This document shows, one piece after another, positions 19,099 through 44,510 of a stretch of DNA of 64,000 nt (its first letter is position 1; each line of letters starts with the position of its first letter). Made by a program: the position numbers and the translations under genes. The notes under the pieces were generated by a model. The model ran no database searches and had not been told where the DNA came from. It worked only from the letters and a program-made list of their open reading frames with translations. The stretch comes from an uncultured Gammaproteobacteria bacterium (GTDB taxonomy: Bacteria > Pseudomonadota > Gammaproteobacteria > Steroidobacterales > Steroidobacteraceae), in contig CAVPJQ010000020.1 in assembly GCA_963705495.1 (NCBI GenBank), positions 4,504 to 68,503 on the forward strand, given 5' to 3'.

Positions 19099-19124
19099 CG
19101 ATCTGGCGACGCGCGCGCCGGCCG

Positions 19125-20325
19125 CTAATCAAATCGCCAGTCGCGCCCCTCGAGAATCTCGACGAGACGCGCGAGAAACTGCGAGGCGAGGCGACCGTCG
19201 GCGACGCGATGATCCACCGTCAGCGTGAGCTCCGACTGTGGGCGCACCTCGATGTTTCCGATCCGCACCACGACGCAGTCTCGTTGCCGCCCGACCGCGA
19301 GAATCGCCGATTGCGGCGGGTTGATGATTGCAGTGAAGCGATCCGGGCCTCGTGCGCCGAGGTTCGAGAGGCTGATCGTTGCGCCGTCGAGCTCTTCGCG
19401 CTTCAGCCGACCCTTGAGGGCGCGCTCGACACAATCGGCGCGCCGGCGACCGAGCTCAATGAGTCCAAGCCGCTCGACGTCGTGAATCACGGGAACGAGC
19501 AAGCCGTTTTCCACGGCAACCACCAGGCCGATGTGAGCACCGTTGGCCTGCACGATGCGAGCAGTCGGGCGAGTCCGGATCTCCCAGGAAAGTCGCGTTC
19601 ATAGTCGGGAACTCGATGAGCGTTCGAGCGATCGCCTGTAGCAGAAAGTCGTTCATCGAGAGTTTGGCTGAGCTCGAAGACGGCGTCGCAGAGAGCTCGG
19701 CGCGTAGCGCCTGCAGTGCCGTCCAGTCGACCGAGCGCTCGACAATGAACTGCGGAATGGTCGCGTTACTCAGCGTCATGGCTCGCGCCAGCGCGCGGCG
19801 CATCGGCGCGAGTCCTTGGGGCGCCGATGCCGGCACGTGTGTGGCTCGTGCCGTCGCAGGTGATTCGATTGCCCGTCTCACGTCCTCGAGTTGAACACGT
19901 CCGCGCGGACCTGACCCCGCGATGCCGCCGAGATCGAGTCCGTGCTCGGCAGCAAGCTTGCGTGCGACCGGCGAACTCCGGATGCGATCGCCGGTGTCCG
20001 CTGCGAATGCAGGGGCGGAAGGCAACGCGGTTTCAAGTTCGGGCGTCCGCGCCTTTGGCGCCGTGGTCTGCGCTTGCTGTGGTGCGTCGGCTTCCACACG
20101 GGCGATTTGATCGCCGACGTTCGCTTCCTCGCCCACCTGCACCAGGATCTCGGCCAGGCGCCCACTCACGGTGGCCTCGATTTCGACAACCGACTTTTCC
20201 GTTTCAACTTCGACCAGCGGCTCGCCGAGCGTCACCGTGTCGCCCACGTTCTTGAGCCAGCGAGTGACCCGGACCGCCTCCATGACGAGGCCGACCTTCG
20301 GAATCTCCTGCGTAACCAGGGGCAC
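19125..20325 (-). pseudogene. dihydrolipoamide acyltransferase (E2) with one lipoyl domain, one frame interruption
   Basis: AGGAG plus GTG 20325. Lipoyl motif LVEVETEKSVVEIEA, E3-binding SSPVARKLAAEHGLDL, catalytic C-terminus TLTVDHRVADG. The frame change is near 19575. Confidence 0.85.
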
Positions 20326-20329
20326 CTCG

Positions 20330-21319
20330 TTACTCCTGCGCCTGTGCTTCGAGACCGAGCACGTGGCGCACGCCACGGACGATGTCGCTACTGCCGGGAA
20401 GCAGCGCGCGCTCGAGTTCTGGAGCAAAGGGAATGGGCGCGAAGGGACAGCCGACACGCACGACCGGAGCGTCGAGCTCGTCGAACAGCTCCGAGCCGAT
20501 GCGCGCCGCGATCTCGGCACCGACGCCACCGTTGCGCACGGCTTCGTGTGCGATCACGGCCCGGTGAGTCTTCGCGACCGATGCGGCGATCGTTGCCATG
20601 TCGAGCGGCACGAGAGTGCGCAGGTCGATGACCTCAGCAGAAACACCCGCGCGCGCCAGGGTCTCTGCGGCTGTCAGCGCATCTCGCACCATGGCCGAAT
20701 ACACGATCAAGGTCACATCGCTTCCAGCGCGCACAACCCGGGCCTTGCCGATCGGTGGCAGCTTTGCGTCGCTCGCCAGGGCTTCCTTCATTGTGTAGAG
20801 CCGCTTGTGCTCAATGAAAAGCACCGGTTCGCCGAGCCGAATCGAACTCTTGAGCAGGCCGTAGGCCTCGGCGGGCGAGGAGGGCGCCACGATCACCAGC
20901 CCTGGAACGTGGATGAACCAGGCCTCGAGGCTCTGCGAGTGCTGCGCTGCTGCGCCACCCGCAGCACCCGCCTGCGTACGCACTACGAGCGGAACGCTGA
21001 GCTGGCCGCCCGACATGTAGCGGTACTTGGCGGTTTGGTTCACGAGGCAATCCATGGCGAGGGTCGCAAAATCGATGAACATGATTTCGAGCACTGGCTT
21101 GAGACCGCACAGCGCGGCGCCGGTCGCGAGGCCCGTGATTGCCGCTTCGCTGATTGGCGTGTTGCGCACGCGCTTGGCACCGTGTTTCTGCGCGAGACCC
21201 TTGGTGACGCCGAAGGCTCCGCCCGCTGCGACGTCCTCGCCCAGCAAATGGACCGAGGCGTCGCGGGCGAGCTCCTCGTCGAGCGCGCGGCGAAGAATTT
21301 CGATGAAGGTGTGCTCCAT
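20330..21319 (-). CDS. 2-oxoacid dehydrogenase E1 beta subunit (second copy), intact
   Basis: MEHTFIEILRRALDEELARD...ISEAAITGLATGAALCGLKPV...VIDLRTLVPLD. It starts 5 nt after the TGA of the upstream alpha gene. Confidence 0.85.
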   Translation of the reverse strand: MEHTFIEILRRALDEELARDASVHLLGEDVAAGGAFGVTKGLAQKHGAKRVRNTPISEAAITGLATGAALCGLKPVLEIMFIDFATLAMDCLVNQTAKYRYMSGGQLSVPLVVRTQAGAAGGAAAQHSQSLEAWFIHVPGLVIVAPSSPAEAYGLLKSSIRLGEPVLFIEHKRLYTMKEALASDAKLPPIGKARVVRAGSDVTLIVYSAMVRDALTAAETLARAGVSAEVIDLRTLVPLDMATIAASVAKTHRAVIAHEAVRNGGVGAEIAARIGSELFDELDAPVVRVGCPFAPIPFAPELERALLPGSSDIVRGVRHVLGLEAQAQE

Positions 21320-21324
21320 GAAGC

Positions 21325-22312
21325 TCAGCCCGGCATCGCGTTGAACGATGGCGAACGGTAGACATCCTCGAGCACCGTCGCCGGATCGGGGCGCGGCGCA
21401 GCACGGGCGCGTTCGACGGCTTGCTGAACCTCCTGCTGTGGCGCGCTCCCCGATCGCGTCGAGTTCTTCGAGCTTGACGCCGCGCTCGATGAGCTGGCGT
21501 TCAGCCGCTCTATCGGGCACTTCTCCCGGATCGCGGCGAGCTCTTCCTTCGAGCGATACTGCTGTGCATCGCCGACATAGTGACCCGCCATGCGAAACGT
21601 CATGCACTCGAGCAGATACGGGCCCGACCCTTGCGCAGACAGTTCGATCGCTTCGCCGCGCGGCCGCATGCACGGTGGGCAGGTCGTTGCCGTCGATCGT
21701 CTTCGTGGCGATGGAGTAGGGCGCTGCGAAACTGCTGACGTGCGTAACGTTCGAGTGCTCCTCGCGGCTGGTGAACTCGGCGTAGCCGTTGTTCTCGCAC
21801 ACGAAGAGCACCGGAAGCCGCCACAGCGCGGCAAGGTTCAGCGTTTCGTGAAACGCGCCGGCGCCCGTCGCACCGTCGCCGAAGAACACGACGCTGATGT
21901 TCTGCTTACCCTGCGCCTGCGCCGCCCATGCAGCACCCGCGGCGAGAGCGAGGTTCCCTGCCACGACTCCGGTGGCGCCGAGTACGCCATTCGCTGCGTC
22001 GACCAGATGCATCGAGCCACCGCGACCGCGGCACAAGCCCTCTTCCCGGCCCAGAATCTCGGCGAATGTCGCCTGAAGGTCACTCCCCTTGGCGAGCACG
22101 TGGCCGTGGCCACGATGGCTGGTGAACAATGCGTCCTCCCGAGTGAGATGCGCGCAGACGCCCACAGCAACCGCTTCCTGCCCGGTCGATAGGTGGGGGA
22201 AACCAGGAATCTCCCCCGCGGCAGCGAGGCGCTGCACCTGGCCTTCGAACAGACGTATCCGCCAGAGCGCGTGATACATCTGCTTCCAGTCATCCAGCGT
22301 CGGTGAAGTCAC
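21325..22312 (-). pseudogene. 2-oxoacid dehydrogenase E1 alpha subunit (second copy), at least three frame interruptions
   Basis: N-terminal two thirds are intact (GRGGSMH, FFGDGATGAGAFHETLNLAALWRLPVLFVCENNGY). The C-terminal part alternates between two frames near 21665, 21520 and 21440. Confidence 0.8.
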
Positions 22313-22479
22313 AATTTCTGCCCGGGTTGTTGGTTTTCATGAATACCTTGAAAGCGCGCGAGCTGTCTCCATCGTCGGAGAAATGATACCGCCCGCGTCC
22401 GGGGCCTCGCGAGCGGATTGGGATGCTGCTAATGTCGCCGTCGGCCGTATCGCGACCAAAAACCAAGAACGGTGGGCGT

Positions 22480-23013
22480 ATGTCCAGTCAGCATCGGATT
22501 CGGACGGCTCTGTGGGTTGTTGCCGCAGCCGCATTGCTACCTTCGACGGCGTCAGTTGCGCAGAACTCAGCGGACCGCGACTTGAGCGAAATCAGCAGCT
22601 ACGTGCTGACCGACGCGGGTCTTGCCAAGTACACCCAGGCCGTCAAGAACCTGGGCCCCCTTGCGAAGGGGATGTCGGATCACTGCGCTGAAGGGGACGA
22701 CGATGACGGTGAGAGTGCTCACTCCCTGGATGAAACGGTGGCGCGCGTCGATGCGAATCCAGGCGTTCACGCGGCGATCAAGGCGGCGGGCATGACGACC
22801 CGCGAGTACCTCGTTTTCACCTTCTCCTTGTTTCAGAACGGCATGGGGGCTTGGGCGCTCGATCAGCCGGGTGGCAAGTTGCCGCCAGGCATGTCTTTGG
22901 AAAACGTGAAGTTCTATCGCGCGCACGAGGGCGCCATCAAGCAACTGAGCGCTGAGACCAAAGCCGCCGACTGTGAAGGTGGCGAGCGCGAGGACGAGGA
23001 CAACGCGCAATAG
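22480..23013 (+). CDS. hypothetical secreted protein with acidic C-terminus
   Basis: Signal peptide MSSQHRIRTALWVVAAAALLPSTASVAQ. No family recognised. Confidence 0.5.
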   Translation: MSSQHRIRTALWVVAAAALLPSTASVAQNSADRDLSEISSYVLTDAGLAKYTQAVKNLGPLAKGMSDHCAEGDDDDGESAHSLDETVARVDANPGVHAAIKAAGMTTREYLVFTFSLFQNGMGAWALDQPGGKLPPGMSLENVKFYRAHEGAIKQLSAETKAADCEGGEREDEDNAQ

Positions 23014-23028
23014 CGAGGCGACTGGCGA

Positions 23029-23907
23029 TCAGATGCCGGCCATGTCCCTGCACTTGTTTCCAGTGCAGTTCGGCTCCGCTACGCGTTCGCCGTACAAGCG
23101 CTCCGCAAGCTTCATATAGTCCCGCACGGCGTCGAGAGTGGCCGTGGACTTGTAGGAGTCCGTAGGAGCGCCCCGCAATGCGATAGTGGCCAGCACTCTC
23201 GAGTCGTTCCTTTCGTGAGACGGAATACGCTCAGTGACGAGGTAGTCCTTGTAGCGCTTCATGAAGGCCTGCATGGCACCGGTGGCGCCCCACCATTGCG
23301 GGCACATCGCGACATACGCCTGGTCGGCTTCGCGCTTGATGGCATCGTACTCGGCGAAGGCCCAGTCCGGTGTGCCACTCTCACCGACGCCCCAGCCTTC
23401 GGTGATGCCGAGCTTTTTCCGCAGAGCCGCGAAGTGCGTCCGCGGCGGTACCAGCGCCGTCTCCATCGCTGCGTGGTAACGCTTGAGCAGAGCCGTTTCC
23501 TCGGCCTCGATCGCTTGCTGCTTTTCGAGTTGCTGCGTGTGTTCGGCTTGGACCGCCTCGGGATCCGTTGCGCCCGTTTGCTGGAGGAGCTTCGTCGCGT
23601 TCTGGGGGTCCTTCATCATCAATTCCTGCATGCGAGCGGCCGTGGCCATGGGGTCCTCTCCCGCCGTCGAGCCCCAGTTGGAGATCTGATCGTTGACCTC
23701 CTTCTGCTTGGCGGCGTCGGCTGAGACGACCTGCAATGCCGCGGCATTGGTGGCGGCGAATTGATCCTGTGATGCGTAGCAGGCCGTCGGCAGCGGCACA
23801 GCCTTCGCCCAGGGGCTCGCTGGCGGTTGCGCGCAAAGACCGGACGCCATCGCCAATACACTTGCGCCCGTCGAGAAGAGCAAGCGGCCATAACATGAAC
23901 CGCGCAT
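23029..23907 (-). CDS. hypothetical secreted protein, 292 aa
   Basis: Intact ORF with signal-like N-terminus LLFSTGASVLAMASGLCA. No family recognised. Confidence 0.5.
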   Translation of the reverse strand: MRGSCYGRLLFSTGASVLAMASGLCAQPPASPWAKAVPLPTACYASQDQFAATNAAALQVVSADAAKQKEVNDQISNWGSTAGEDPMATAARMQELMMKDPQNATKLLQQTGATDPEAVQAEHTQQLEKQQAIEAEETALLKRYHAAMETALVPPRTHFAALRKKLGITEGWGVGESGTPDWAFAEYDAIKREADQAYVAMCPQWWGATGAMQAFMKRYKDYLVTERIPSHERNDSRVLATIALRGAPTDSYKSTATLDAVRDYMKLAERLYGERVAEPNCTGNKCRDMAGI

Positions 23908-24088
23908 GCGGCCTCCTTCAGCTGAGATGGATCGTCCGCTTGCGACAACGCGATGCGATCGCCAACGCTTGGAAACGAAGTGGGCTCTGGCCCATTATGG
24001 TTCATGGAGTCTGGGCCAGTCCTGCGCCCGAGTGTATGCTTTTGCGGCGATCGAGCCACTCCAATAACGAACTGGGAAGGGTAATAGC

Positions 24089-24529
24089 ATGGCCTTGCCT
24101 TTTTTTTGCCGCGCGTCGGGCGCTGTTTTGACCCTGCTCGGATCTCTGGTTGTCGTTGCGGCGGGCCCGCGGGCAGACACGCCAAGCGCCGCCGGGGATC
24201 TCTGGGAAGTGACGTCCAAGATGTCGATGGAGGGGATGCCGATGGAGATGCCGGCGCAGAAGATGAAAGTCTGCGCGGCGAAAGTGTGGACCAAGCCGCC
24301 GGCGGGCGACAACCCGCAGCAGAAGTGCATGCGCTCGGACTACGTGATCGACGGCGACAAAGTCACCTGGACCGAGAGTTGCGAGGGGCCGCCGATGACA
24401 GGCAAGGGCGAGATCACGCGGCAGGGTGACGATGCTTATGTCGGATCCATCCAATACAGCTCCGCACAGGGCAACATGACCATCAAGCTCGCTGGCCACA
24501 AAGTGGGGACCTGCGACAACCCCAGTTAG
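24089..24529 (+). CDS. DUF3617-like secreted protein
   Basis: 146 aa with a signal peptide, a conserved Cys pattern (KVCAAK...QKCMRSDY...ESCEG...GTCDN) and GDLWEV, typical of DUF3617. Confidence 0.65.
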   Translation: MALPFFCRASGAVLTLLGSLVVVAAGPRADTPSAAGDLWEVTSKMSMEGMPMEMPAQKMKVCAAKVWTKPPAGDNPQQKCMRSDYVIDGDKVTWTESCEGPPMTGKGEITRQGDDAYVGSIQYSSAQGNMTIKLAGHKVGTCDNPS

Positions 24530-24921
24530 GAAGCGCGCGGGGACTCGCCCGCACCGACCCGTGGTTCACGCCCGTTCGTGTTACGGATAGGGTCTGATTC
24601 TTTCCTCAATTTTCGTCAACGGAAAATTTCGTTCCCGCGGGGGTCGCACGCGCGACGTCGCGAATGTCATCTGGTGCACCGGGTTTCATCCGGGCTTCGA
24701 CTGGATTGATCTTCCCGTCTTTGTGCGTCTGCCATTCCTGCACGCGATGTCCTCGTCCATGGTCCATGGCGTTGGCCGGGACGCAGCGCGCATCGTCGCG
24801 CAGATCAGGTTGCGACTCGGTGCAGGGGCAGTCGCGTCACCGCAAGTCTGATTGGGAGCGCTACTTGATCCGCAACCCTATGTTTAGACGACAGTTCTAG
24901 CGTGTCCGGATCTAGGACCGT

Positions 24922-24963
24922 TGACTCAATGATCATTTAGAATACTGAACAGTCATTGAGTCA
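24922..24963. promoter_or_regulatory. candidate TetR operator: 11-bp perfect inverted repeat TGACTCAATGA-N20-TCATTGAGTCA
   Basis: Read directly from the sequence. It lies 44 nt upstream of the TetR-Rieske start in an AT-richer stretch. Confidence 0.5.
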
Positions 24964-25006
24964 GGCCGCCGGCCGGGATAAAATGCAGGCACACCGGGAG
25001 ACTCCA

Positions 25007-26858
25007 ATGTCCGCCAATATCCAGGGCAGCCCTGAGCTGCGACCCAGTGGCTCCAAGCTCGATCTGATCCGTGCCACCGTGGCTGCGATCTCGCGCCATG
25101 GCCTCTCGGAATTGACTTCGGCCAAGATCGCGAGCGCGGCGGGCCACACGGCCGCTTCGGTCAATTTTCACTTCGGCGTCCAAGGAAGCGCTGCTCCTCG
25201 CCACGTTGCGCGAGGTCTCCGAGGAGTTTGCCGAGAGCATGGCAGCCGTGCTCGCCGATGCAGGCGACGACGCATTGCTGGGCCTGCTCGGAATCATCGA
25301 TGCGAGCCTGAGCCGGCGACTGAGCGAGTCGCAGAAGATCGCGGTGTGGTACGCATTCCTGGCCGAGTCGAATGCGCGCCAGGACTACCAGCGCATCTGC
25401 GGTGAGCGCGACCAGTCTTACAGCCAGACGGTCACGACGCTTTGCACGCGGCTGATCGCCGCCCGCGGCGTCGAGGGCTGGCCCGACGCCGAGGCCGTCG
25501 CGCTCGGCCTGACGGGTCTCATCGATCAGCTGTGGCAGGGCATTCTGTTCGAAGGCGACGACTTCGATCGTGACGCTGCGAAGCGCCAGTGTCGCGCCTA
25601 TCTGTGCAGCGTCTTTCCGTGGCTCGCCGATCGTATCGAGGCAACTGCGCCGGCGAAAGCAAAGGTTCGAGCCTTGCAGCCGGAAGTGCGGACACCGACA
25701 GATCCGGCGCTGCGCTACACCTTGCCGGCCTGGGTCTATCACAGCGAGGAGTTTCACGAGCTCGAGAAGGAACACCTGTTCCTGCCTTCATGGCAGATCG
25801 TCTGTCATGTCAGCGAGCTCGCTTCTGCCGGGGACTATGTCGCGTTCGAGTTCTTCGGCCGGCGGGGCTTCGTCATCCGTGATGACGCCGGAACGCTGCG
25901 TGCCTTTGACAACGTGTGCGCGCATCGCGCGCACGCGGTCGTGGGCGGGCAGCGCGGTCACTGCGCGAAATTCCTGACCTGCCCGTACCACGGCTGGACC
26001 TATCATCTCGATGGACGCAATCGCAGTGTCAGCGCGCCCGACACGTTCCCGAAGTTCGATCGGTCGAAGTTCGGGCTCAAGCCGCTCGAGCTCGAAGTGT
26101 TCTGCGGCATGGTGTTCGTGAGGTTCCGCTCAGGCGAAGCGAGCGTCGCAGAGCGCATGGAGCCTCACAAGGCGGAGCTTGCTCATTACCGGATCGAGCA
26201 GATGGTGCCGCTCGACGAACTCTGGGTTCACGACGTGGAGATCGACTGGAAGAACCTGGTCGAGAACTATGTCGAGGACTACCACTTTCCCATGGGTCAC
26301 CCGGGCCTCTCGGCATTGATGGAGTCGCAGTACGATCGCGAGGTCCTGCCGGCGGGCACGATGCGCTTGAGTCACCGGATGCGCGAGACACCGCTCAAGT
26401 CCTGGAGCGCGCAGCGCTACGCGAAATTTCTGCCGACGATCGAACATCTGCCCGAGACCATGCGTCGCCGCTGGACCTACATCGGGCTGTTCCCCAATGT
26501 GTTCTTCGACATCTACCCGGAGTGGCTGGACTTCTTCCAGCTGGTGCCGACCGGGCCTGGGCGTACGCAGATCCGCGCCCGCTCGTATGGTTTCCCGGAT
26601 GACCGGCGCGAGATGCGGGCCGCTCGCTGGCTGTGCGCACGCCTCAACACACGTGTGCAGGCGGAAGATGAAGTGCTCACGCGCTCGGTGCAGCGGGGGC
26701 TCTCCTCCGGCGCGTATACGCAGGGCATTCTCTCGTCCAAGGAAATCGTGCTGGCCGGGTTCCAGGACTGGATCCGGGCTCGGCTACCGGTGACGCACCT
26801 CACGCAGGCGCCGGCCCGCGGCACAGTCGCGGCACGCAATTCCAGCCTGGCGATCTGA
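25007..26858 (+). pseudogene. BetI-type TetR regulator continuous with a Rieske [2Fe-2S] ring-hydroxylating oxygenase alpha subunit (no stop between them), one single-base frame interruption
   Basis: GGGAG RBS before ATG 25007. HTH LIRATVAAISRHGLSELTSAKIASAAGHTAASVNFHFG, extra base at 25178, then SKEALLLATL...AVWYAFLAE. A 25-aa linker follows, then the Rieske motif CAHRAHAV...CPYHGWTY and the catalytic domain NYVEDYHFPMGHP. Confidence 0.75.
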
Positions 26859-26869
26859 CGAGCGCCGGA

Positions 26870-28265
26870 TCAGATCGCGCGCAGGTACCACTCGTAGTCG
26901 CGATCCGTGATCTCGGCGTGGAAGCGGTCGCATTCTTCGCGACGGCACGTCGCGAACAGGTCGTGATAACGCTTGCCGAGGTACTGCGGCAGCACGGTTC
27001 CCTTGTCGAATGCATCGAGCGCCGCTTCCCAGCGCAGCGGCAGCCCAACCCTTTCCTCGATGACCTCGCCCTGCGCAACCATCGGGCCGGGTTCGATGCG
27101 GTTGGTGATTCCGTGGTGAATGCCCGCGAGAATCGCCGCCATCACCAGGTAGGGATTCCCATCGGCGCCACCGGGTCGATGTTCGATACGCGTGTCCTCG
27201 GGTGCTGAAAGTGGCACCCGCAGCGCGACCCCACGATGATTGACGCCCCAGTTGGGCGCGAGCGGGACGAACAGTCCGGGCCGATAGCGTCGATAGGAAT
27301 TCGCCGTAGGCGCGAAGATCGCCATGGATTCGGCCATCGTTGCCGCAAGACCGCCGACGGCGTGGCGCAGCGTGTCGGAAAATGGTTGCTCCGGAGCCAG
27401 GCCCGGCAAACACATTGCGACCGGATTTATCCGTAAGGCTGACGTGCACGTGCAGGCTGCAGCCCGCTGCCTGCGCAAACGGTTTCGCCATGAAGCTCGC
27501 GCCCAGGCCGTGCCGTCTCGCGACAGCCTTGACCGCCCGCTTCAAGAGTACGGCGTGGTCGCACGCACGCTCTGCGTTGGCCACGTGACGCAGATTTACC
27601 TCGAACTGGCCCGGCGAGAATTCCTTCAGCGTGGCGCCCGCGGGGATGTTCTGTGCTTCGCAGACCGCGTACAGCTCGGCCAGGAACGGATCGACATCCT
27701 CGACGTCCTCCATGCTGCCGTACTGTGGCCCATCCTGCGGCCGACGCGTCCCCGGTATGTTGCCAACCTTCGGGGAGGGGCGATTGCCGTCCGAGACCGG
27801 ATCCGCTGAATCGAGCAGATAGAACTCGAGCTCCGTCGCCGCCACGGCTGTCAGCCCCAATTCCTGCAGCGGTCGTGCAGCGTTTCTGAGCACCTGGCGC
27901 GGGTCGGCGAAGAACGGCTCGCCATTGGAATTCGCCATCACGAGCAGCAGCTGCGCGGTCGGCACCTGCGCCCAGGGCACGGGCGCAAGAGAGCCAGGCA
28001 CGGCCGTCGAGATCGCGTCTGGATCACCGTCACGGCTCCCGCTGTCGATGCGCTCGAACGTCTGCCCCTTGCTGTCGAGCAGCACAGTTGCGCCGCAGAA
28101 GTTGAGGCCTTCCTTGAAGGGCTTCGCGAACTCGTCACGCACGACTCGCTTGCCGCGCAGGATTCCCAGCATGTCCGGTTGCAGGAGCTCGAGCAGCTGC
28201 GTATCCGGGTATCGTTCGAGATAGGCCTGCAGCTCCCCAGGCGCGCGATTCGTTTCTTTGTTCAT
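26870..28265 (-). pseudogene. glutamine synthetase family protein (gamma-glutamylpolyamine synthetase, PuuA-like), one frame interruption
   Basis: MNKETNRAPGELQAYL...ELEFYLL...KEFSPGQFEVNL...ASFMAKPF then, in another frame, NSYRRY...NHRGVALRVP...RIEHRPGGADGNPYL. The frame change is near 27400. Its ATG overlaps the upstream stop (ATGA). Confidence 0.85.
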
Positions 28266-29100
28266 GAGTTCTTCCCCGCCGATTTGCCCGTGGCGCGGGC
28301 GCTGCGCCACGCGACTGCAGCCTTCGCCCCTTCGCGTTTCAGGATGGCATTGAATTCGCGCGACTCCGCGGACTCGGAAGTTTCGATGGTCACGTTCAGT
28401 TCGAGCGCCTGCAGCAGTGCCTCGCGCATGCCCGCCGATGTCGAGGCTGCGGTTGATCGCCTGTTTCGTCAGTTTCACGGCCAGCTGGATCATTGGCGGC
28501 GACGCGCCGGGCAAGCTCGAGAGTCCGGTCGAGCGCCTGTCCTGCCGGGACGACGCGATTGATCAGCCCCATGTCGAGCGCGTCGGCCGCGGTGACCCGA
28601 TCATCGCCGCTGAGGAGCAGATACTTCGCGCATTTCGGCCCAGCGAGCCAGGGCAGCAGCATCGCTACGATGCCGCTTCCGAATCGGACCTCTGGCGCAC
28701 CGAAAAAGCAGTCCTCGGACGCGACCGTGAGATCGCAGGCGAGCGCGAGCTCCATGGCACTGCCGAGGCAGTAGCCATGTGTAGCAGCGAGCGTGACCTT
28801 GGGACAATCCCAGAAGCGCATGATGATCTCAAAGTCGTTGCGCAACGCCTGGCGGACGTGCTCGGGTTCGGGCTTGCCGGCGCTTTCGATTTCCATGTCC
28901 AGATCGAAGCCGGCCGAGAAGGCGCGGCCGGCACCGGCGAGCACGATCGCGCGAACCGAGAGATCCGCTTCCGCGGCGTCGAGCGCACTTCCAAGTTGAG
29001 CGATCATCTGTTTGTTGATCGCGTTCAGTTTGTCGGGCCGGTTGAGCATCAACAGGGCGATGCCATCGCGAAGCTCGCTGCAAACCAGTGCACCGGCCAT
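28262..29100 (-). pseudogene. enoyl-CoA hydratase/isomerase (crotonase) family protein, two frame interruptions
   Basis: IALLMLNRPDKLNAI...LAGAGRAFSAGFDL...GYCLGSAMELALACD. C-terminus recovered in two other frames (IQLAVKLTKQAINRSLDIGG, MREALLQALELNVTIE...). Frame changes lie near 28495 and 28430. Confidence 0.8.
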
Positions 29101-29110
29101 CTGCGTCACC

Positions 29111-30635
29111 TCAGGACAGCCGAAACCACGCGGACTTCGACTGCATGTAGCTCTTGATGCTGTCGAAGCACTTGTCGCGCGCGTGACCCGACTGCTTGTA
29201 GCCGCCAAACGGCTGGGTCATGTCGCCTTCGTCGAAGGAGTTGATCCAGATGATGCCGGCCTCGATACCGCGCACCAGCCGGAACGCGGTGTCGAGATCG
29301 CGGGTCCAGACGCCGGCGGCAAGCCCGTAGATGGTGTCATTCGCTATGGCGATGGCCTCGTTCGACTCCATCGAACGGAATCACGGTGGCGACCGGGCCC
29401 GAAGATTTCCTGGCGTGCAATCGTCATGTCGTTACGCACGTCGGTGAAGAGAGTAGGGCTGACGTATGCGCCTGCATCCATACCCCGCGGTGCGCCGCCG
29501 CCGAACTGCAAGCGCGCGCCCTCGCGTCGTCCGGTCTCGATCAGGTTCAGCACCCGTTGCTGCGCTTCGCGCGTTACCAGCGGACCGAGGTTCGTCGCGG
29601 GATCGAGCGGATCACCCGGCTGAAAGGCGTCCTTGCCGAGCTCGATGAATCGCTCGACGAACCGCTCGTGGAGCGAGCGATCGACGAGCAGCCGCGAGCC
29701 GGCATTGCAGACCTCCCCCATGTTGGAAAATATCCCACGGTAGGCGGCGGTGACCGCACGATCGAGATCCTGCGACGTCGGCGAGGAACACCTGCGGTGA
29801 CTTGCCGCCGCACTCGAGCGCGACCTGCTTCATGTTCGACTGGCCCGCGTACTGGAGGATCAGCTTCCCGACCTCGGTCGAACCCGTGAAGGTGATCTTC
29901 GCGACGTCGGCGTGCAGCGCGAGCGCCTTGCCAGCGACTTCGCCCAGTCCGTTGACGACGTTGAACACGCCCGGCGGCCCGCCCGCCTCGACGAACAGTT
30001 CCGCAAGTCGCAGGCAACTCATGGGCGCCTGTTCCGCGGGCTTGAGGACCACCGTGTTGCCGGCGGCCAGCGCGGGAGCGATCTTCCACACGGCCATCAG
30101 CAGCGGATAGTTCCACGGCGAGATCGCGCCGACGACGCCGAGCGGCTCGCGCAGGACCATGTGCATGACGCCGGCTTCCGTGTTCGTGACGCTCGCCCTC
30201 GATCTTGTCGACGCACTCCGCCATGAAGCGAATCGTGTCGATGACGGAAGGCAGATCGACGCCGACCACGTCGGCGATCGGTTTGCCCATGTCGAGTGTT
30301 TCGAGCACCGCGAGGGATTCGGCGTGCTGTTCCACCAGCGTCGCGAAGCGATACATGATCTCCATGCGCTGCCGGGGCGCGATCCGTGACCAGGATCCGT
30401 CCTTGAACGCGCGCCTGGCCGCCGCAACTGCGCGATCGATGTCCTGCTCGGTGCCTGCCGACATCTCCGCGAGCGGTTCGCCGGTCGCCGGATTGACGGT
30501 CGCGAATCGTCCGCCTTTCGCGGCATCGACGTATCGACCCTCGATGAAGAGGCGTGTCTCGATGCGGGCGCGCGCCGCGTTCGCCGCAGCCTGCCAGCGC
30601 ACCTTGTCGTAGTTGCCTAGTGTCTGAAGGCTCAT
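29111..30635 (-). pseudogene. NAD-dependent aldehyde dehydrogenase (PuuC/PauC-like), at least four frame interruptions
   Basis: Four ORF pieces tile one ALDH: [11 protein letters not shown]...[56 protein letters not shown]...IANDTIYGLAAGVWT...GGYKQSG. Frame changes lie near 30190, 29760, 29397 and 29365. Confidence 0.85.
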
Positions 30636-32760
30636 CGAGCTTGCCTCGCTTGTGGCTCGACCTGGTGATGCGGCTGGCGACCGACGATGAGTGCATCGAC
30701 GATGACGCAGCCATTCGCGTGCACGATCACCGGATTCAAATCGATCTCACTCGACTCGATCGCCGAGACCGGCGACCACCGCGGAAAACTGCGCCGCCGT
30801 CCTGCAGAATGCGTCCACGGCTAGCGGGCGACTTGTAGCGCGGGCTGTGCAGAAGAGCGCCGAGCTTCAGCCGCTCGACTAACCTATGGGCTTCGGCGGC
30901 ATCGAAGGGCGGCAAAGCATAGACCACATCGGCGAGCGCCTCCACGTGCACGCCGCCGAATCCGACCAGCACGACAGGTCCGAACTGATCGTCGTGAACC
31001 ATGCCGAGCAGCATCTCCACGCCCGGGGTGCGGATCATCGGTGCGACCAGTGCGCGCGGACCGATCCGGTTCGACAGGTCCTGGTAAGCAGCGTCAGATC
31101 GGCCTCGTCCTCGATGTTCATCCGTACGCCGTCGCGGTCCGACTTGTGGTCGATGCCGCGCATGGCAGTCTTGAGGACGACGGGATAGCCGAGCTCGCGC
31201 GCGGCCGCGCGCGCTTCCAGCGCGCTCTCGACGATGCGACCCGGGTTGGCCGGGCAACTGGAAGTCCCGCAGCAGCGTCATCGCCTCGTGTTCATCGAGC
31301 TTCGCGTGGCTCGCGAGATGAGTGCGCCACTGGGTGAGTACCGGCTCCGGCAGCTGCGAACACAGGCCCGCGCTCGCGCGCTTGATGGTCGCGATAGTCC
31401 AGCAGGCACTTCGCCCCGCGCAGAAACGAACGGACGCCGTCGAGCACCGGGAAACCTGCACGTGTCGAGGCGATGACCTGCGCAGTCGGTTCCGGTACCC
31501 TGGTGATTGGCAACGAGAAATGCAGGCTTGCCGGACGCCGCGTGCCCCGCGCGCAGGTAGTCGAGATAACCGGAATGGATGCCGCCCCCTGCGACGCGAT
31601 CATGGATGACCGCGCCGAAGGCAGCGCCCGGATCACACATCAACGCGGCGAAGCATTCCTGCATCGCGACGTGATAGTCCGGGCCGCCGGTGCTCCAGGC
31701 ATCGAGGGGATTGATCGGCGGCAAGCCGGGATCAAGGAGTGCAGCGAGCTGCGCCGTGGTGGCGGAGCGAGATCTGCGTGAGCGGCACGCGCGCCTCATG
31801 AGCCAGATCGATGAGCAGCTGCCGTTCACCGCCCGAGTCGTGAATCGATACCAGACCGCCGGCCCCGACCGCGATGCGGCTGCGCGAACATGATGAGGGC
31901 CGTGGCGAGCTCATCCATGTCGTCCACGCGCTGCACGCCGTAGCGATCGAACAGCGCCTGATACACGGCGTCCTCGCCGGCGATGGCGCCCGAATGCGAG
32001 ACGGCCAACCTGGCGGACGAGCTCCGTACGACCCACCTTCAGCGCGACGATGGGTATGCCGCGCTCGTTGCGCCTTCTCGAACGCGCGAGCAAGCCCTTG
32101 CGGATTGCGCGCGGTCTCCATGAACAGGCCCACGGCGCGGGTCGTCGGCTGATCGAGCGCGAAGTCCAGGTACTCGTCCATCGTGACCGCCAGTTCCTGG
32201 CCGGTCGATACCACGAGGTTGAAGTCGATGCGCTCCTCGCTATCGACGATGCCGCACATTCCGGAGCCCGAGTGACTGATGTAGGCGACGTTTCCGCCGC
32301 GCGCGTGCACTCGCGTCTCGAATCCGCACGCCCAGATGCCAGCGGCGAAATTGTAGAAGCCCATGCCGTTGGCGCCGCAGACCACGAGTCCTGATGCGCG
32401 AATCTTCGCGAGCACGCGCTCCTGAAGATTTGGCTTGCGATCCTGCGCCAGCACGAGCGAAGACATGATCGTTGCGGCGCGCGCGCCATGAGCGATGACC
32501 TCGTCGAGCGCTGCTTCGATGCGCTCGTCGCTGACCGCGAAGATCACGTGCTCGACCGGCTCCGGCAGGGCCGCGAGTGAAGGAAAGCACGGCACACCGC
32601 AGACCGATTGATAGCGAGGGTTGACCGCAAACAGTGCACCATCGAATCCGCCTTTGAGGAGGTTTGCGACCTCGTGCGACCGACGGTTCCGGTGCGCTCG
32701 GTCGCGCCCACCACAGCGATTGAGTGTGGGACGAAGCAAGGGTTCCAGGCGATGAGGCAT
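30632..32760 (-). pseudogene. ADP-forming acyl-CoA synthetase (CoA-binding, succinyl-CoA-ligase-like and ATP-grasp domains), about eleven frame interruptions
   Basis: Pieces in all three frames tile one roughly 709-aa protein: SIAVVGATERTG, FAVNPRYQSVCGVPCF, VCGANGMGFYN, YISHSGSG, IPIVALKVGRTE, AVSHSGAIAGEDAVYQALFDRYGV, NPLDAWSTG, EIDLNPVIVH. Its stop overlaps the ALDH start (ATGA). Confidence 0.75.
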
Positions 32761-38600: not shown

Positions 38601-38625
38601 CACTGAATAGCTGTTCATTCATTGA
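38601..38625. promoter_or_regulatory. candidate operator in the divergent promoter region (imperfect palindrome TGAATAGCTGTTCA plus TCATTGA half-site)
   Basis: Lies in the 141-nt divergent intergenic region. It shares the TCAATGA/TCATTGA and TGAACAG words with the 24922-24963 repeat. Confidence 0.3.
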
Positions 38626-38658: not shown

Positions 38659-39417
38659 ATGCCCGCGTGGGCTTACGAGTTGCTGGCTTTGCCGCAGTCG
38701 AACCAGAACCCCAAGCGGCGGCGCCCGGTCAAGGCGTCGCGCCGCACGGCTGCGCCCGAAGAACGCCGGCAGCAGCTGATCGAGGCGACCATCCGCTGCG
38801 TCGCGAATCGGGGCCTGGCGCAGACCACCATCGCCACCGTGGCGCGGGAGGCGGGCCTGAGCCAGGGCATCATCAACCTGCACTTTCGCAGCAAGGACCG
38901 CTTGCTCATCGCTACGCTGCGATACCTGGCGGACGAATACCGCAGCGCTTGCGAGGAAGCGGCTGCCGCGGCGGGAGCTTCGCCTGTCGCCGGGCTGCAG
39001 GCGATGGTCGATCTGGATTTTCAACGCAGCATCTGCACGCGGGACAAGCTCGCTGTCTGGTTTGCCTTCTGGGGTGAGCGCCGATTCCGGCCAACGTATC
39101 GGCGCATCTGCGCAGCGCGCGACAAGTCCTACGAAGATCGGGTGCGCGTCCTGTGCGCAAGACTGTGTCAGCAGGGCGCCTATCCCGATGTGGATCCGGC
39201 GCTGGTGGCTGACGGACTCTCGGCACTGACCGATGGTCTGTGGCTTGACCTGCTCGTCAGGCCCGACTCGATGAGCCGGGAGCTGGCGCGACGAATCAGC
39301 ATGTCGTATCTCGCGGATGCTTTTCCGCGTCACTTCGAGCGTCCCGCGATTGAGCGACGCATCGCGGCCGATCGACGCGTCACCGCGAACCGACCGGCTG
39401 TGGTCGGCGCAAGATAG
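38659..39417 (+). CDS. TetR-family (BetI-type) transcriptional regulator
   Basis: 252 aa. HTH LIEATIRCVANRGLAQTTIATVAREAGLSQGIINLHFRSKDRLL. The C-domain AVWFAFWGERRFRPTYRRICAARDKSY is paralogous to the TetR part at 25007. Confidence 0.85.
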   Translation: MPAWAYELLALPQSNQNPKRRRPVKASRRTAAPEERRQQLIEATIRCVANRGLAQTTIATVAREAGLSQGIINLHFRSKDRLLIATLRYLADEYRSACEEAAAAAGASPVAGLQAMVDLDFQRSICTRDKLAVWFAFWGERRFRPTYRRICAARDKSYEDRVRVLCARLCQQGAYPDVDPALVADGLSALTDGLWLDLLVRPDSMSRELARRISMSYLADAFPRHFERPAIERRIAADRRVTANRPAVVGAR

Positions 39418-39423
39418 CTCATC

Positions 39424-40593
39424 ATGCAGATCATCCTTGATGAGGCGGCGAGGGCGTGGCGCGAGCGTGCCGCGCAGTTCGCCAGCCAGGAATTGATCCC
39501 CTGGGAGGTAGAAGCCGAACTCAACGAGGGGAAATTGCCACCCGAGGTGAAGGCGCGGCACCGCAAACTCGCAGTCGAACTAGGCTTCAGCGCGATGGAC
39601 GTACCGGCTGCGCATGGCGGCCGCGACGCGCGTGTGATCGATCAGGTGGCGGTCTGGGAGCAGCTTGGCAGGGTCACCAACGCGTTGTGTTGGTGCTTTT
39701 CCGAGCCTCATCGCTGGATGTTCGAGGCCTGCAGCCGGGAGCAGCTCGAGCGGTACGTGCTGCCCCTCATGAGCGGCAAGCGCAAGGAGTGCTACGCAAT
39801 CACGGAGAGCGGCTCGGGCTCGGACGTCGAGTCGATCCAGACCACCGCGCAACGCTGTCCCGGCGGCTACTCGATTCGCGGGGAGAAGTGGTACGTCACG
39901 AGCGCCAATCACGCCGATTATTTCATCCTGCAGGCGCGGCTCACCGACGGACCGCACGCGGGGTCGCACTCGCTCTTCTTCATCGACAAGGATCAGCCCG
40001 GCATCGAGCTGGTGCGCACACCGGCTTTCAGTCACACCTTCAGTGATCATCATCCGATCTACCGGTTCAACGACGTCGTGGTGCCGGAGAGCCAGCGCCT
40101 CGGCGCGGAAGGCGACGGCATGCAGCACGCCCATAGCTGGTTCCGCCGCGAACGGCTGATGATCGCGGCGCGCTGCTGCGGCGCCTCCAGTCGCTTGATT
40201 GAAGAGGCGAGCGCCTTCGCCAGCACGCGCATGATCGGCGGTGAGCCGCTGGCTGAACGGCAGATGATCCAGGCGATGCTGGCGGACAGCGTGACCGAGC
40301 TCTGGGCGGCACGGCTCATCACCTACGAGGCCGCGCAGGCGCACGATCGCGGCGAAGAGCTGAGGTCCCTCCATGCGCGCTGCGCGATCGCGAAGCTCTA
40401 CGCCTCGGAGGCCGCGAACCGGATTGTCGACCGCGCATTGCAGATATTCGGCGGGCGAGGCTACATGCGCGAAAACTGCGTCGAGCGATTCTTTCGGGAA
40501 TTGCGCGTGGATCGGATCTGGGAGGGCGCCAGTGAAATTCAGCGTCTCATCATCGCGCGAGCGCTGCAGAAGCGCGGGCTCGAGGGGATGTAA
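39424..40593 (+). CDS. acyl-CoA dehydrogenase family protein, intact
   Basis: 389 aa. CYAITESGSGSDV, GEKWYVTSA, QIFGGRGYMREN...RIWEGASEIQ. Confidence 0.85.
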   Translation: MQIILDEAARAWRERAAQFASQELIPWEVEAELNEGKLPPEVKARHRKLAVELGFSAMDVPAAHGGRDARVIDQVAVWEQLGRVTNALCWCFSEPHRWMFEACSREQLERYVLPLMSGKRKECYAITESGSGSDVESIQTTAQRCPGGYSIRGEKWYVTSANHADYFILQARLTDGPHAGSHSLFFIDKDQPGIELVRTPAFSHTFSDHHPIYRFNDVVVPESQRLGAEGDGMQHAHSWFRRERLMIAARCCGASSRLIEEASAFASTRMIGGEPLAERQMIQAMLADSVTELWAARLITYEAAQAHDRGEELRSLHARCAIAKLYASEAANRIVDRALQIFGGRGYMRENCVERFFRELRVDRIWEGASEIQRLIIARALQKRGLEGM

Positions 40594-40596
40594 CGG

Positions 40597-41688
40597 GTGA
40601 AAGCGCTTGCGCTCCTCATCGCCGCAGTCGCTGCCGCGTGTGCGGTCGCTGCCGGGAGCGCAGAAGAGAAGATCCTGAACGTCTTCACGTGGCCGGACTA
40701 CATCGGTCCGAACACCATTGCAGACTTCGAAAAGGAGTACGGAATCAAGGTGAACTACGACACCTACGATTCCACCGAAATGGCGGAGGCGCGGCTACTG
40801 GCCGGTCGTACGGGTTACGACGTGGTTGATCACGCCGAACGTTATTCGGCGCGCCTGATCCCGATCGGCGTCTACCGTCCGCTCAATCGCGCCAAGCTCA
40901 CCAACTGGGGGAACCTCGACCCCTGGGTGCTCAACACCCTGCAGTCAGCGGATCCGGGCAATCGCTATGGCGTGCCGTATCTGTGGGGCACGACCGGATT
41001 TACCTACAACGTGAAGATGATCCGTGAGCGCATGCCGAACGCACCGGTCGACAGCGCAGACATGATCTTCAAGCCGGAGGTCGCGCGCCATTTCGCGGAT
41101 TGCGGCATCTCGTTCCTCGATGAGCCCACCGACGTGATCCCGATGGCCATGATCTATCTCGGCCACGATGCCAACAGCGTTGATCCTGCCGATCTCGCGC
41201 AAGTCGAGAAGCTTCTCAAGGCGGTGCGCCCGTACATCCGCTACTTCAGCTCGGCGAAGATGCTGGTCGACTTGCCCAACGAGGAGGTCTGCATTGCGAT
41301 GAGCTGGTCGGGAGACTACGCGCAGGCGATGTACCGGGCACAGGAGGTTGGCAAGCCGGTCGAGCTCGCATACACGACACCGCGCGAAGGGACGCTGGCG
41401 TGGTTCGACCTGTGGTTCATTCCGGCGGATGCGCCGCATCCCGACAACGCCCACCTGTTCCTGAATTACCTGTTGCGCCCGAAGGTGATCGCGGACATCA
41501 GCAACGAGGTCCGGTATGCGGCGCCAAACATTCCGGCCATGCCCTTCGTTGTGCCCGAGGTTCGCAATGATCCCGCGGTGTACCCGCCCGAAGAGGTGCG
41601 GCTCAGCCTGCACAAGGGCGTTCTTCACAGCCCGAAGGAGGAGCGCGCGAGGTCCCGTCTGTGGTCCCGCGTGAAGACCGGACTGTGA
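40597..41688 (+). CDS. potF: polyamine (putrescine/spermidine-type) ABC transporter periplasmic binding protein
   Basis: GTG start and signal peptide. Collinear similarity to PotF: LNVFTWPDYIGPNTIADFEKEYGIKVNYDTYDS, YLWGTTGFTYN, FLNYLLRPKVIADIS. Confidence 0.85.
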   Translation: MKALALLIAAVAAACAVAAGSAEEKILNVFTWPDYIGPNTIADFEKEYGIKVNYDTYDSTEMAEARLLAGRTGYDVVDHAERYSARLIPIGVYRPLNRAKLTNWGNLDPWVLNTLQSADPGNRYGVPYLWGTTGFTYNVKMIRERMPNAPVDSADMIFKPEVARHFADCGISFLDEPTDVIPMAMIYLGHDANSVDPADLAQVEKLLKAVRPYIRYFSSAKMLVDLPNEEVCIAMSWSGDYAQAMYRAQEVGKPVELAYTTPREGTLAWFDLWFIPADAPHPDNAHLFLNYLLRPKVIADISNEVRYAAPNIPAMPFVVPEVRNDPAVYPPEEVRLSLHKGVLHSPKEERARSRLWSRVKTGL

Positions 41689-42788
41689 GCGAACCTCCAT
41701 CGCCGCTGGTACAGATCCGTGAACTCTCGAAGCATTTCGATGGCGTCGTAGCGGTGGATCGAGTGTCCCTCGACATTCTTCGCAGCGAATTGTTCGCGAT
41801 CCTGGGCAGCTCCGGATGCGGCAAGACCACGCTGCTCAGGATGCTGGCGGGTTTCGAGCCGCCGACTTCGGGCCGGATCCTCATCGACGGCGTCGATGTC
41901 ACCGATGCGCCCCCTTACGAGCGCCCGGTCAACATGATGTTCCAGTCCTACGCACTGTTTCCGCACATGACCGTGACCCAGAACGTCGCCTACGGGCTCA
42001 AGAAGGAACGGGTTCCAGCCGCCCAGATCAAGGAGCGGGTCGGCGAGATGCTCGCGCTCGTCAAGCTCGAACCTCTCGCCGACCGCAAGCCAGACAAGCT
42101 TTCCGGTGGGCAGCAGCAGCGCGTGGCGCTCGCTCGAGCTCTGGTCAAGCGGCCCAAACTGCTGCTGCTCGATGAACCACTGGCGGCGCTCGACAAGAAG
42201 CTGCGCGAGCACACGCAGTTCGAGCTCGCCAACATCCAATACCAACTTGGCACGACCTTCGTCGTCGTCACGCACGACCAGGACGAAGCGATGACGCTTG
42301 CGAGCCGCATCGCCGTGATGGCGGAAGGGCGGATCGCGCAGGTGGGCACTCCAGGCGAGGTGTACGAGTACCCGGCCAACCGCTACGTCGCAAGCTTCGT
42401 CGGCAACATCAACCTGATCGAGGGTCGCGTAGCGAGTGCGAATGCAGGACGTTTATCGCTGCGTTGTGATGCGCTCAATGCGGATCTGGCGGTGCTGTGC
42501 GAGGAGGAGATCGGGTCCGGCGCTGCGGTCAGCGTGGCCGTGCGTCCCGAAAAGATCACGATCAGCCGCAACGCCCCGAACGGCGAGGATCGCAACGTCG
42601 TCAAGGGCATTGTCCGCGACCTCGGCTACTTCGGCGATCAATCGCTGTATCGCGTGCGGCTGCAGAGTGGAGCCGTGTTGCAGGTCAGCGCACAGAATCT
42701 GCGGCGCTCAGCAAAGCTGACCGTGGAGTGGGACGACGAAGTGTATCTGTCGTGGGAAGTCTCCAGCACGATCCTGTTGCGCTCATGA
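41685..42788 (+). CDS. potG: polyamine ABC transporter ATP-binding protein
   Basis: GTGA overlap with potF. Walker A GSSGCGKTT, signature LSGGQQQRVALARAL, Walker B LLLLDEP. Confidence 0.85.
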   Translation: MSEPPSPLVQIRELSKHFDGVVAVDRVSLDILRSELFAILGSSGCGKTTLLRMLAGFEPPTSGRILIDGVDVTDAPPYERPVNMMFQSYALFPHMTVTQNVAYGLKKERVPAAQIKERVGEMLALVKLEPLADRKPDKLSGGQQQRVALARALVKRPKLLLLDEPLAALDKKLREHTQFELANIQYQLGTTFVVVTHDQDEAMTLASRIAVMAEGRIAQVGTPGEVYEYPANRYVASFVGNINLIEGRVASANAGRLSLRCDALNADLAVLCEEEIGSGAAVSVAVRPEKITISRNAPNGEDRNVVKGIVRDLGYFGDQSLYRVRLQSGAVLQVSAQNLRRSAKLTVEWDDEVYLSWEVSSTILLRS

Positions 42789-43702
42789 GCGAAGAATCCT
42801 CCAACACGGGCCCTCAGAGCGAGCGCTGGCTGCGCAGGACGGTGATGCTGCCGTACCTGTGGCTGCTGCTGTTCTTTCTCGCCCCGTTCTTGATCATCCT
42901 CAAGATCAGCTTCGCTGATCCGATCGTTGCACAGCCGCCGTTCACGGCGCTGCTCGAATGGGGCCGGCAGGGATTCGAAGGGATCAGGGCCACGTTCGAC
43001 AACTACCTGTTCCTGTTTGAGGACGGCTACTACGCGATCATCTATCTTGCGTCGCTGAAGATGGCGGCGATCGGCACGTTGCTGTGTCTTCTGCTCGGCT
43101 ATCCGATGGCGTACTTCATTGCGCGCCAGCCGCCGCGCCGCCGCCAGATTCTGCTGCTCGCGGTCATCCTGCCGTTCTGGATCTCGTTCCTGTTGCGCGT
43201 GTATGCGTGGATCGGCCTGTTGAGCAACAAGGGGATCATCAACCACTTCCTGGTGAGCGTGGGCATCATCGATCGACCGCTGCCGTTGCTCTACAACAAC
43301 TTCGCCGTGTATCTCGGCATCCTCTATTCGTACCTGCCGTTCATGATTCTGCCTCTGTACGCGAATCTGGAGCGCCAGAACCTGGACCTGCTGGACGCGG
43401 CTGCGGACCTCGGCGCCAAGCGCTGGCAGGTCTTTCTCGATGTCACGCTGCCGCTGTCGAAGCCCGGCATCATCGGCGGATGCCTGCTGGTGTTCATTCC
43501 CGCCGTGGGCGAGTTCACGATCCCGGCGCTGCTCGGTGGCGCCGATACGCTGATGATCGGCCGCGTTCTGTGGGATGAATTCTTTGTGAGCCGCGACTGG
43601 CCGGTGGCGTCCGCCGTGTCCGTCGTGCTGCTGCTCTTGCTGATTGCCCCGATTCTCTGGTTCCAGCACCACCAGAATCGCGAGCAGGAGGCGGGGCGAT
43701 GA
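42785..43702 (+). CDS. potH: polyamine ABC transporter permease
   Basis: ATGA overlap with the upstream gene. Multi-TM protein with EAA-like loop LDAAADLGAKRWQVFLDVTLPLSKPG. Confidence 0.8.
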   Translation: MSEESSNTGPQSERWLRRTVMLPYLWLLLFFLAPFLIILKISFADPIVAQPPFTALLEWGRQGFEGIRATFDNYLFLFEDGYYAIIYLASLKMAAIGTLLCLLLGYPMAYFIARQPPRRRQILLLAVILPFWISFLLRVYAWIGLLSNKGIINHFLVSVGIIDRPLPLLYNNFAVYLGILYSYLPFMILPLYANLERQNLDLLDAAADLGAKRWQVFLDVTLPLSKPGIIGGCLLVFIPAVGEFTIPALLGGADTLMIGRVLWDEFFVSRDWPVASAVSVVLLLLLIAPILWFQHHQNREQEAGR

Positions 43703-44505: not shown

Positions 44506-44510
44506 GAGCG

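Follow-up and report, generated by a model that had tools for sequence, protein, structure and literature searches.

Enzyme-repressor fusions or 'trigger enzymes', such as PutA, BirA and NadR, are known in principle, and in PutA-like proteins one polypeptide is at the same time a DNA-binding repressor and a pathway enzyme, with apparent autoregulation. The repressors of the TetR family, which form dimers, and the Rieske oxygenases are among the best-studied bacterial families, and the members to be compared here are BetI, the choline-responsive repressor of the bet genes, and the oxygenase CntA. CntA (PDB 6y8j and 6zgp) is an alpha-only enzyme that forms an alpha3 trimer, with E205 as the bridging glutamate and with Y203 in cation-pi contact with trimethylammonium, a tyrosine that is the mark of subgroup Va, its position being occupied by Asn in subgroup Vb (PMC7948474). 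The gene under discussion (positions 25007-26858, plus strand) is found in a 64,000-nucleotide stretch of contig CAVPJQ010000020.1 (assembly GCA_963705495.1) from an uncultured member of the Steroidobacteraceae, the whole stretch that was analysed being called the window. It joins modules of these two families, a combination that is apparently undescribed although both parts are so familiar; in the literature no paper was found that describes a natural covalent TetR-Rieske oxygenase fusion. The best explanation, to which a probability of about 0.72 is given as a whole, is that the TetR N-terminal piece and one frame of 559 codons encode a single polypeptide of approximately 616 amino acids, broken in the assembly by an inserted G, and that this protein would be a self-repressing enzyme-regulator for quaternary-amine catabolism.

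The resemblance to each of the known systems is partial. The encoded protein is, like CntA, an alpha-only Rieske protein in which the bridging Glu, the two His, the Asp and the cation-binding Tyr are aligned, but the identity is only approximately 25%, and it is not CntA proper, as it reads EDYHF rather than the ECYHC that carries the C206/C209 cysteine pair and has no CntB-type reductase gene next to it; moreover, it carries an N-terminal TetR module of approximately 230 residues that CntA lacks. With BetI it shares the TetR_N and TetR_C_6 domains, the palindromic operators over the promoter and the quaternary-amine theme, while the covalent link to an enzyme, a tandem double operator with a 20-nt period and a score below the BetI equivalog cut-off set it apart. 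The PutA-like proteins make use of ribbon-helix-helix or winged helix-turn-helix (HTH) domains instead of a TetR domain and of unrelated enzymes, and the TetR module of the fusion brings its own ligand pocket, so that, at variance with them, sensing need not use the active site. Finally, separate TetR/Rieske pairs (loci L028 and L034, and others in Actinomycetota) have the same order, orientation and homologous families, but with a stop codon and a short gap between the genes.

The reading frame is made up of the following parts, all on the plus strand.

24996-25000, plus strand: Shine-Dalgarno sequence GGGAG, 6 nt before the ATG, as read from the sequence
25007-25177, plus strand: start of the fusion gene, TetR HTH domain, first 57 codons (PF00440, 27.3 bits, cut-off 24)
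25178, plus strand: extra G that breaks the reading frame, in the sequence context CACTTCGGC[G]TCCAAGG
25179-25643, plus strand: remaining TetR module, BetI-type ligand and dimerisation domain (PF13977 TetR_C_6, 56.5 bits, cut-off 27)
25644-25703, plus strand: flexible interdomain linker, rich in Ala, Pro, Arg and Lys, approximately 20-25 residues, holding the non-conserved TTG 25674 and GTG 25686
25788-26057, plus strand: Rieske [2Fe-2S] domain (PF00355, 64.8 bits), with C-x-H (TGC codon at 25917) and C-x-x-H
26220-26786, plus strand: catalytic mononuclear iron domain (PF00848, 133.5 bits), with the motif ENYVEDYHFPMGH and the carboxylate of ...AEDE...
26856-26858, plus strand: stop codon of the fusion gene, on which a GS-like ligase gene converges from the minus strand

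The ATG at 25007-25009 begins the TetR N-terminus, and the 57 codons that follow from it (MSANIQ...VNFHFG) match PF00440 TetR_N, with 51 of the 57 residues identical to those of the intact ortholog P0003 by our own count. The upstream motif GGGAGACTCC(A/C)ATG is kept in loci L003, L004, L005 and L014 when the upstream regions are compared. Beyond the extra base, 25179-26858 is one open frame of 559 codons, containing TetR_C_6 at residues 36-145, Rieske at 204-293 and Ring_hydroxyl_A (PF00848) at 348-536, all above the Pfam cut-offs. The first-pass annotation of this DNA had stated that, once the base at 25178 is removed, a complete TetR runs without a stop codon into a Rieske oxygenase, and this is borne out by the orthologs, which are single frames of approximately 612-616 amino acids; the motifs that it had listed (CAHRAHAV, CPYHGWTY and DYHFPMGHP) are all found in the translation and, as it had noted, neither of the other two frames offers an alternative TetR end, there being no nearby stop codon in either.

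The status of the extra G was judged from the alignment of orthologs and from the local density of insertions and deletions (indels). Genomes G008, G018 and G009 read CACTTCGGC-TCCAAGG, without the extra G, in the DNA alignment, and so does L014, an ENA contig with 93.7% DNA identity to the window and all genes called intact. The alignment of the window with L014 has 51 gaps in 12.8 kb, and in coding DNA these are for the most part isolated 1-nt insertions; approximately 20 isolated non-homopolymer 1-nt indels, mostly insertions, fall in the coding DNA of 26860-32730, and those found in 19100-32750 interrupt the genes for E1/E2, the GS-like protein, crotonase, aldehyde dehydrogenase and CoA ligase. 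The density of indels relative to L014 is uneven, with zero between 32730 and 36870. Since the G at 25178 resembles the neighbouring 1-nt insertions in kind and is absent from the compared orthologs, it is very probably an assembly insertion error rather than the sign of a pseudogene.

The opposite view, namely that the copy of this genome is a true pseudogene with a real +1 frameshift in the HTH domain, would imply that the repressor module is not made by the organism and that any protein product lacks its N-terminal part. The frameshift does stand in the deposited sequence, which speaks for such a view, and the rest of the 1.85-kb gene is free of unambiguous indels with respect to L014, so that the indel count of the gene lies below the local error density and the indel at 25178 could in principle be genuine. 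A real frameshift is nevertheless quite improbable, given that isolated 1-nt insertions outside homopolymers also interrupt almost all genes of the conserved operon next door, which nevertheless are approximately 94% identical to an intact relative, and that protein conservation is high on both sides of the break (51/57 residues before it and 95% after it). The practical lesson for this window would be that the frameshift is an assembly artefact, and what this copy adds to a real, widespread and unstudied family is mainly that artefact.

Evidence for a genuine fusion comes from other genomes. The first-pass annotation had proposed to look in databases for the architecture TetR_N plus Rieske plus ring-hydroxylating catalytic domain; a search of 5.8 billion proteins yielded at least 120 clusters (at 90% identity) of approximately 612-616 amino acids, 74-95% identical, every one with PF00440, PF13977, PF00355 and PF00848, and originating from NCBI, JGI, ENA and Logan assemblies. 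An exhaustive search among representatives at 50% identity returned dozens of proteins of 550-630 amino acids with matches over the full length of the query and identities as low as 25-35%, and the continuous frame recurs in hundreds of independent assemblies. Within the same family an ortholog is present in 17 of 201 species genomes, this one included, and in 6 of 40 genera. In the alignments all 17 span the TetR-Rieske junction, 16 as uninterrupted open frames and one with a single TGA. Single-frame fusions in named genome records are those of several Steroidobacteraceae metagenome-assembled genomes (MAGs) and of two other Gammaproteobacteria MAGs (53-55% identity), with more distant ones in a Kiloniellaceae MAG (49%) and a Spirochaetales MAG (36%). 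Every fused example that was observed comes from a MAG, and the NCBI labels of the proteins, in Steroidobacteraceae MAGs, are only 'SRPBCC family protein' or 'TetR family transcriptional regulator'. Taken together, the comparisons across genomes indicate that the TetR-Rieske fusion is genuine, ancient and conserved. Thus, the earlier remark that such a fusion would be unusual stands as far as the architecture is concerned, which is uncharacterised, but not as a statement of rarity, the fusion being not rare in metagenomes.

The stretch that joins the two modules, from SVFP to TLPAW, comprises 30-45 residues of variable sequence, and its length changes in whole codons, always in frame. In the AlphaFold2 model of a 95%-identical ortholog two confident domains are found (mean pLDDT, 86.7); the TetR helices reach residue 212 of the ortholog, with pLDDT values mostly of 83-96, and the values drop below 50 at residues 216-225, which indicates that the linker is a flexible tether. 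No solved structure aligned past the oxygenase part of the fusion protein in the fold search.

The same region bears on a different possibility raised by the first-pass annotation, according to which a stop codon was lost in this genome or in its assembly, TetR and oxygenase being really two genes, with the oxygenase starting from TTG 25674 or GTG 25686. Both codons are present in frame, TTG 25674 among them with AAGG before it (25662-25665), the assembly is error-prone, and separate adjacent TetR-then-Rieske pairs do exist in distant relatives (the betaproteobacterial L028 and L034, and several Actinomycetota). However, the TTG with its AAGG is restricted to the genus of the window, no internal start codon is conserved in the linker across the compared loci, and L005, L019 and L023 have no in-frame ATG, GTG or TTG anywhere between SVFP and TLPAW. 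Furthermore, no promoter-like site was found inside the fusion gene when 24500-27100 was scanned, so that an internal start codon or promoter for the oxygenase was rejected. With the in-frame changes in linker length, and with a junction that is crossed in 17/17 family orthologs (16 without a stop codon) and in the database clusters from many independent assemblies, the two-gene interpretation retains next to no probability, and the lost-stop proposal was abandoned in favour of the single polypeptide.

With regard to the C-terminal half of this polypeptide, the CAHRAH and CPYH ligands and the PF00355 and PF00848 scores listed above identify a Rieske alpha subunit, with C304, H306, C325 and H328 (fusion numbering) as the cluster ligands. 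The motif ENYVEDYHFPMGH was aligned to DNYMECYHCGPAH of CntA, so that Y421, E423, H426, H431 and D554 correspond to CntA Y203, E205, H208, H213 and D323, respectively. A 2-His-1-carboxylate site is thus found together with a bridging carboxylate three residues before the first His, and the Tyr of ENYVEDYH, two residues before the bridging Glu, falls on CntA Y203 as in subgroup Va. Of 67 fused proteins, 66 retain all nine key residues (the four Rieske ligands and the five of the catalytic domain), and C304, H306, C325 and H328 are unchanged throughout the 67. Among solved structures, CntA (E 5e-36) comes first in sequence similarity, followed by stachydrine demethylase, and the ranking by fold is identical (TM-score 0.82-0.84 for CntA and approximately 0.75 for Stc2). 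On these grounds the oxygenase module is, by its sequence, a complete alpha-only Rieske oxygenase of group V, CntA-like subgroup Va, and homology and gene context suggest that it would oxidise a quaternary ammonium compound.

With regard to the N-terminal half, membership in the BetI-type TetR proteins is indicated by PF00440 and PF13977, both above the Pfam gathering scores here and both also present in the intact ortholog P0003, and among the NCBIfam models of regulators those of BetI match best. The region upstream of the gene contains two predicted operators and a promoter.

24924-24941: operator O1, 18-bp imperfect palindrome ACTCAATGATCATTTAGA (27.6 bits with the position weight matrix, PWM; best match of the genome)
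24944-24961: operator O2, 18-bp imperfect palindrome ACTGAACAGTCATTGAGT (PWM, 25.6 bits; second-best match of the genome)
24956-24984, plus strand: sigma-70-like promoter, TTGAGT-17-TAAAAT, the only promoter-like site in 24500-27100

The PWM was built from 29 sites of other loci, with those of the window excluded, and scanned over the 3.58-Mb genome. The start of O2 lies 20 nt beyond that of O1, and O2 overlaps with the -35 box; the two together make a perfect 11-bp inverted repeat (24922-24932 and 24953-24963) that was also returned by the repeat finder. All of the other 15 fused genes in the comparison, which extend to 36% protein identity, are preceded at a matching position by the O1/O2 pair, with a period of 19-21 nt and the consensus ACTGAATGATCATTCAGT across the fused loci, and a TAnAAT box lies at equal distance in the orthologous upstream regions. 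An operator placed over the -35 hexamer is the classic layout for promoter occlusion, from which autoregulation follows as the natural inference, and O1 and O2 are accordingly predicted to be TetR-type operators for autorepression by the fusion. Of the marks of an enzyme-repressor fusion, the single polypeptide and a conserved double operator on its own promoter are observed, while binding to these predicted operators and a response to a ligand would complete them. The suggestion of the first-pass annotation that the regulator controls the enzyme to which it is joined is in this way supported indirectly, the control being probably exerted on the promoter of the gene itself. Such a compact promoter-operator-repressor unit could become a biosensor part once the ligand is identified.

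Beyond O1 and O2 one further match stood out in the genome scan.

38602-38619: operator-like site ACTGAATAGCTGTTCATT (third-best PWM match, 19.5 bits)

This site is found where an eight-gene amine-catabolic operon on the minus strand diverges from a second BetI-type TetR gene on the plus strand (38659-39414), and it is kept at the same place in G008, G004, G018, G021 and G009 with scores of 12.8-21.1 bits, so that it is a possible point of cross-regulation. A different set of sites was observed at C14:106597-106743, where three TGAATGA-N-TTCATTC-like sequences are present between divergent crotonase and acyl-CoA dehydrogenase genes; these are probably the operator set of another TetR-type regulator.

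In the proposed mechanism, TetR dimers of the fusion would bind O1 and O2, shutting off their own monocistronic gene, with a possible further effect, via the site at 38602, on the amine-catabolic island next to it. The repressor would be released by a quaternary or methylated amine that is substrate or product of the oxygenase, and the oxygenase module would then attack this amine. As Rieske alpha subunits are trimeric and TetR proteins dimeric, the fusion would have to assemble above the level of the trimer, for example as paired trimers, an arrangement that could offer two TetR dimers to operators approximately two helical turns apart. The family provides a natural system for the coupling of enzyme and regulator in one chain and for the coexistence of dimeric and trimeric modules. 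A more elaborate version depicts the protein as a bifunctional trigger enzyme, in which the oxygenase is active, the tethered TetR dimers repress their own promoter, a higher-order assembly clamps the operators 20 bp apart, and the substrate or the redox state at the oxygenase also modulates the release of DNA; this version is regarded as tentative, and the odds are somewhat against it. It is also conceivable that, in the proteins with a full set of ligands too, the repressor receives information from the oxygenase module.

Several observations weigh against the self-repressing enzyme-regulator as described. The TetR module falls short of the BetI equivalogs (TIGR03384 and NF001978), with 85.1 bits against 201.3 and 77.6 bits against 118, and the oxygenase module scores 114.6-118.9 bits against a cut-off of 670 for the GbcA equivalog NF058607. 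Being so far below the latter value, and without the cysteine pair of CntA, the oxygenase is taken as a distinct member of the quaternary-amine group. No PF00175 reductase was found on the contig, and the only two of the genome, which is 92% complete, adjoin ubiD or lie in the paa cluster (PaaE); nor was a reductase gene found in the flanks of the L020, L024 or L041 fusion loci. It is common, however, for a Rieske oxygenase to depend on a reductase that is shared or encoded at a distance. Judged by its score only, the site at 38602 lacks significance, with shuffled genomes yielding 0-4 matches of that strength, and the second TetR may be its true partner. A genome-wide regulon based on the operator PWM was dropped for the same reason, as only 38602 stands out besides O1 and O2 and shuffled genomes reach its score. 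Finally, a mainly sensory role is conceivable for the protein of the window too, given the existence of fused clades with dead active sites.

The latter are of two kinds. A second, paralogous fused clade (L035:6810-8687, L036:6743-8560, L038:6690-8495, L039:6770-8611 and L044:7206-8939, all on minus strands) has lost the first Rieske His and the entire 2-His-1-carboxylate triad, and an intact Rieske alpha gene that is not fused lies at 2-3 kb from each of its members; the clade looks, from its sequences, like a regulator that would use a dead enzyme copy as its sensor. The Spirochaetales fusion (L041), on the other hand, keeps the Rieske cluster ligands and has lost both iron His and the Va tyrosine. 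The retention of fused relatives without iron ligands implies that a module of the oxygenase type can be kept without catalytic function, presumably for sensing, and such dead-site relatives show how an enzyme can decay into a sensor domain; if the trigger-enzyme version were true, they would represent the end point of the design, pure sensors.

It could therefore be argued that the protein of the window is itself essentially a regulator, its oxygenase module being a ligand- or redox-sensing input with little or no catalysis. The absence of a dedicated reductase gene nearby, the retention of L035, L036, L038, L039, L044 and L041 in spite of their lost mononuclear-iron ligands, the intact unfused Rieske gene beside the paralogous clade and the second Rieske alpha gene in the island of the window are all in keeping with this view. 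It is made unlikely by the key residues of the clade to which the window belongs, invariant in 66/67 proteins with divergence down to approximately 49% identity, a degree of conservation that is expected for a working active site.

As to the origin of the fusion, separate adjacent TetR and Rieske genes, as in L028 and L034 (uncultured Betaproteobacteria, with a 16-nt gap) and in the Actinomycetota loci, are likely to represent the ancestral arrangement. In the tree of the oxygenase domain the window belongs to a fully supported clade of 17 sequences, made up of 15 fused ones, the truly unfused G035 and one that is interrupted by the end of its contig; locus L010 (G038) appears unfused, but its contig stops 3 nt upstream of the ATG. 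Over the whole tree, which has long branches, at least 3-5 gains or losses of the fusion have to be assumed, so that a single origin was not retained as a settled conclusion, and one or several origins are possible.

The surroundings of the gene provide information on the pathway. The fusion gene is monocistronic, and a conserved operon converges on it that encodes a GS-like gamma-glutamyl ligase, a crotonase, an aldehyde dehydrogenase, a two-subunit ADP-forming CoA ligase, GcvT and two amine-oxidase-type flavoproteins.

26870-28514, minus strand: GS-like gamma-glutamyl ligase gene, tail-to-tail with the fusion gene

The GS-like gene also converges on the fused gene of G028 (L008:2018-3388) and on the unfused ortholog of G035 (L009:87-1460), a conserved pairing with the oxygenase that may hint at the pathway. 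Further along the window, an operon at 38659-45749 that is led by the second BetI-type TetR gene contains genes for an acyl-CoA dehydrogenase and a Pot-like ABC importer, and a frameshifted second Rieske alpha gene. Elsewhere, the Spirochaetales fusion (L041:1980-5818) lies directly downstream of an MttB-family gene, of the quaternary-amine methyltransferase type, with a 32-bp palindromic operator; the L020 fusion has an MFS transporter gene and a GS-like gene nearby; and that of the Kiloniellaceae MAG has genes for a solute-binding protein and a DAO flavoprotein beside it. These gene contexts fit the catabolism of methylated or quaternary amines, without naming the substrate, and the fusion would mark an uncharacterised catabolic island for such amines in soil and sediment Steroidobacteraceae. 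In two Gammaproteobacteria MAGs (L020:1705-7074 and L022:3866-7065) an unfused Rieske alpha paralogue follows immediately after the fused gene, and in L020 the fused gene is preceded by an OvoA-like gene (DinB plus FGE-sulfatase plus methyltransferase).

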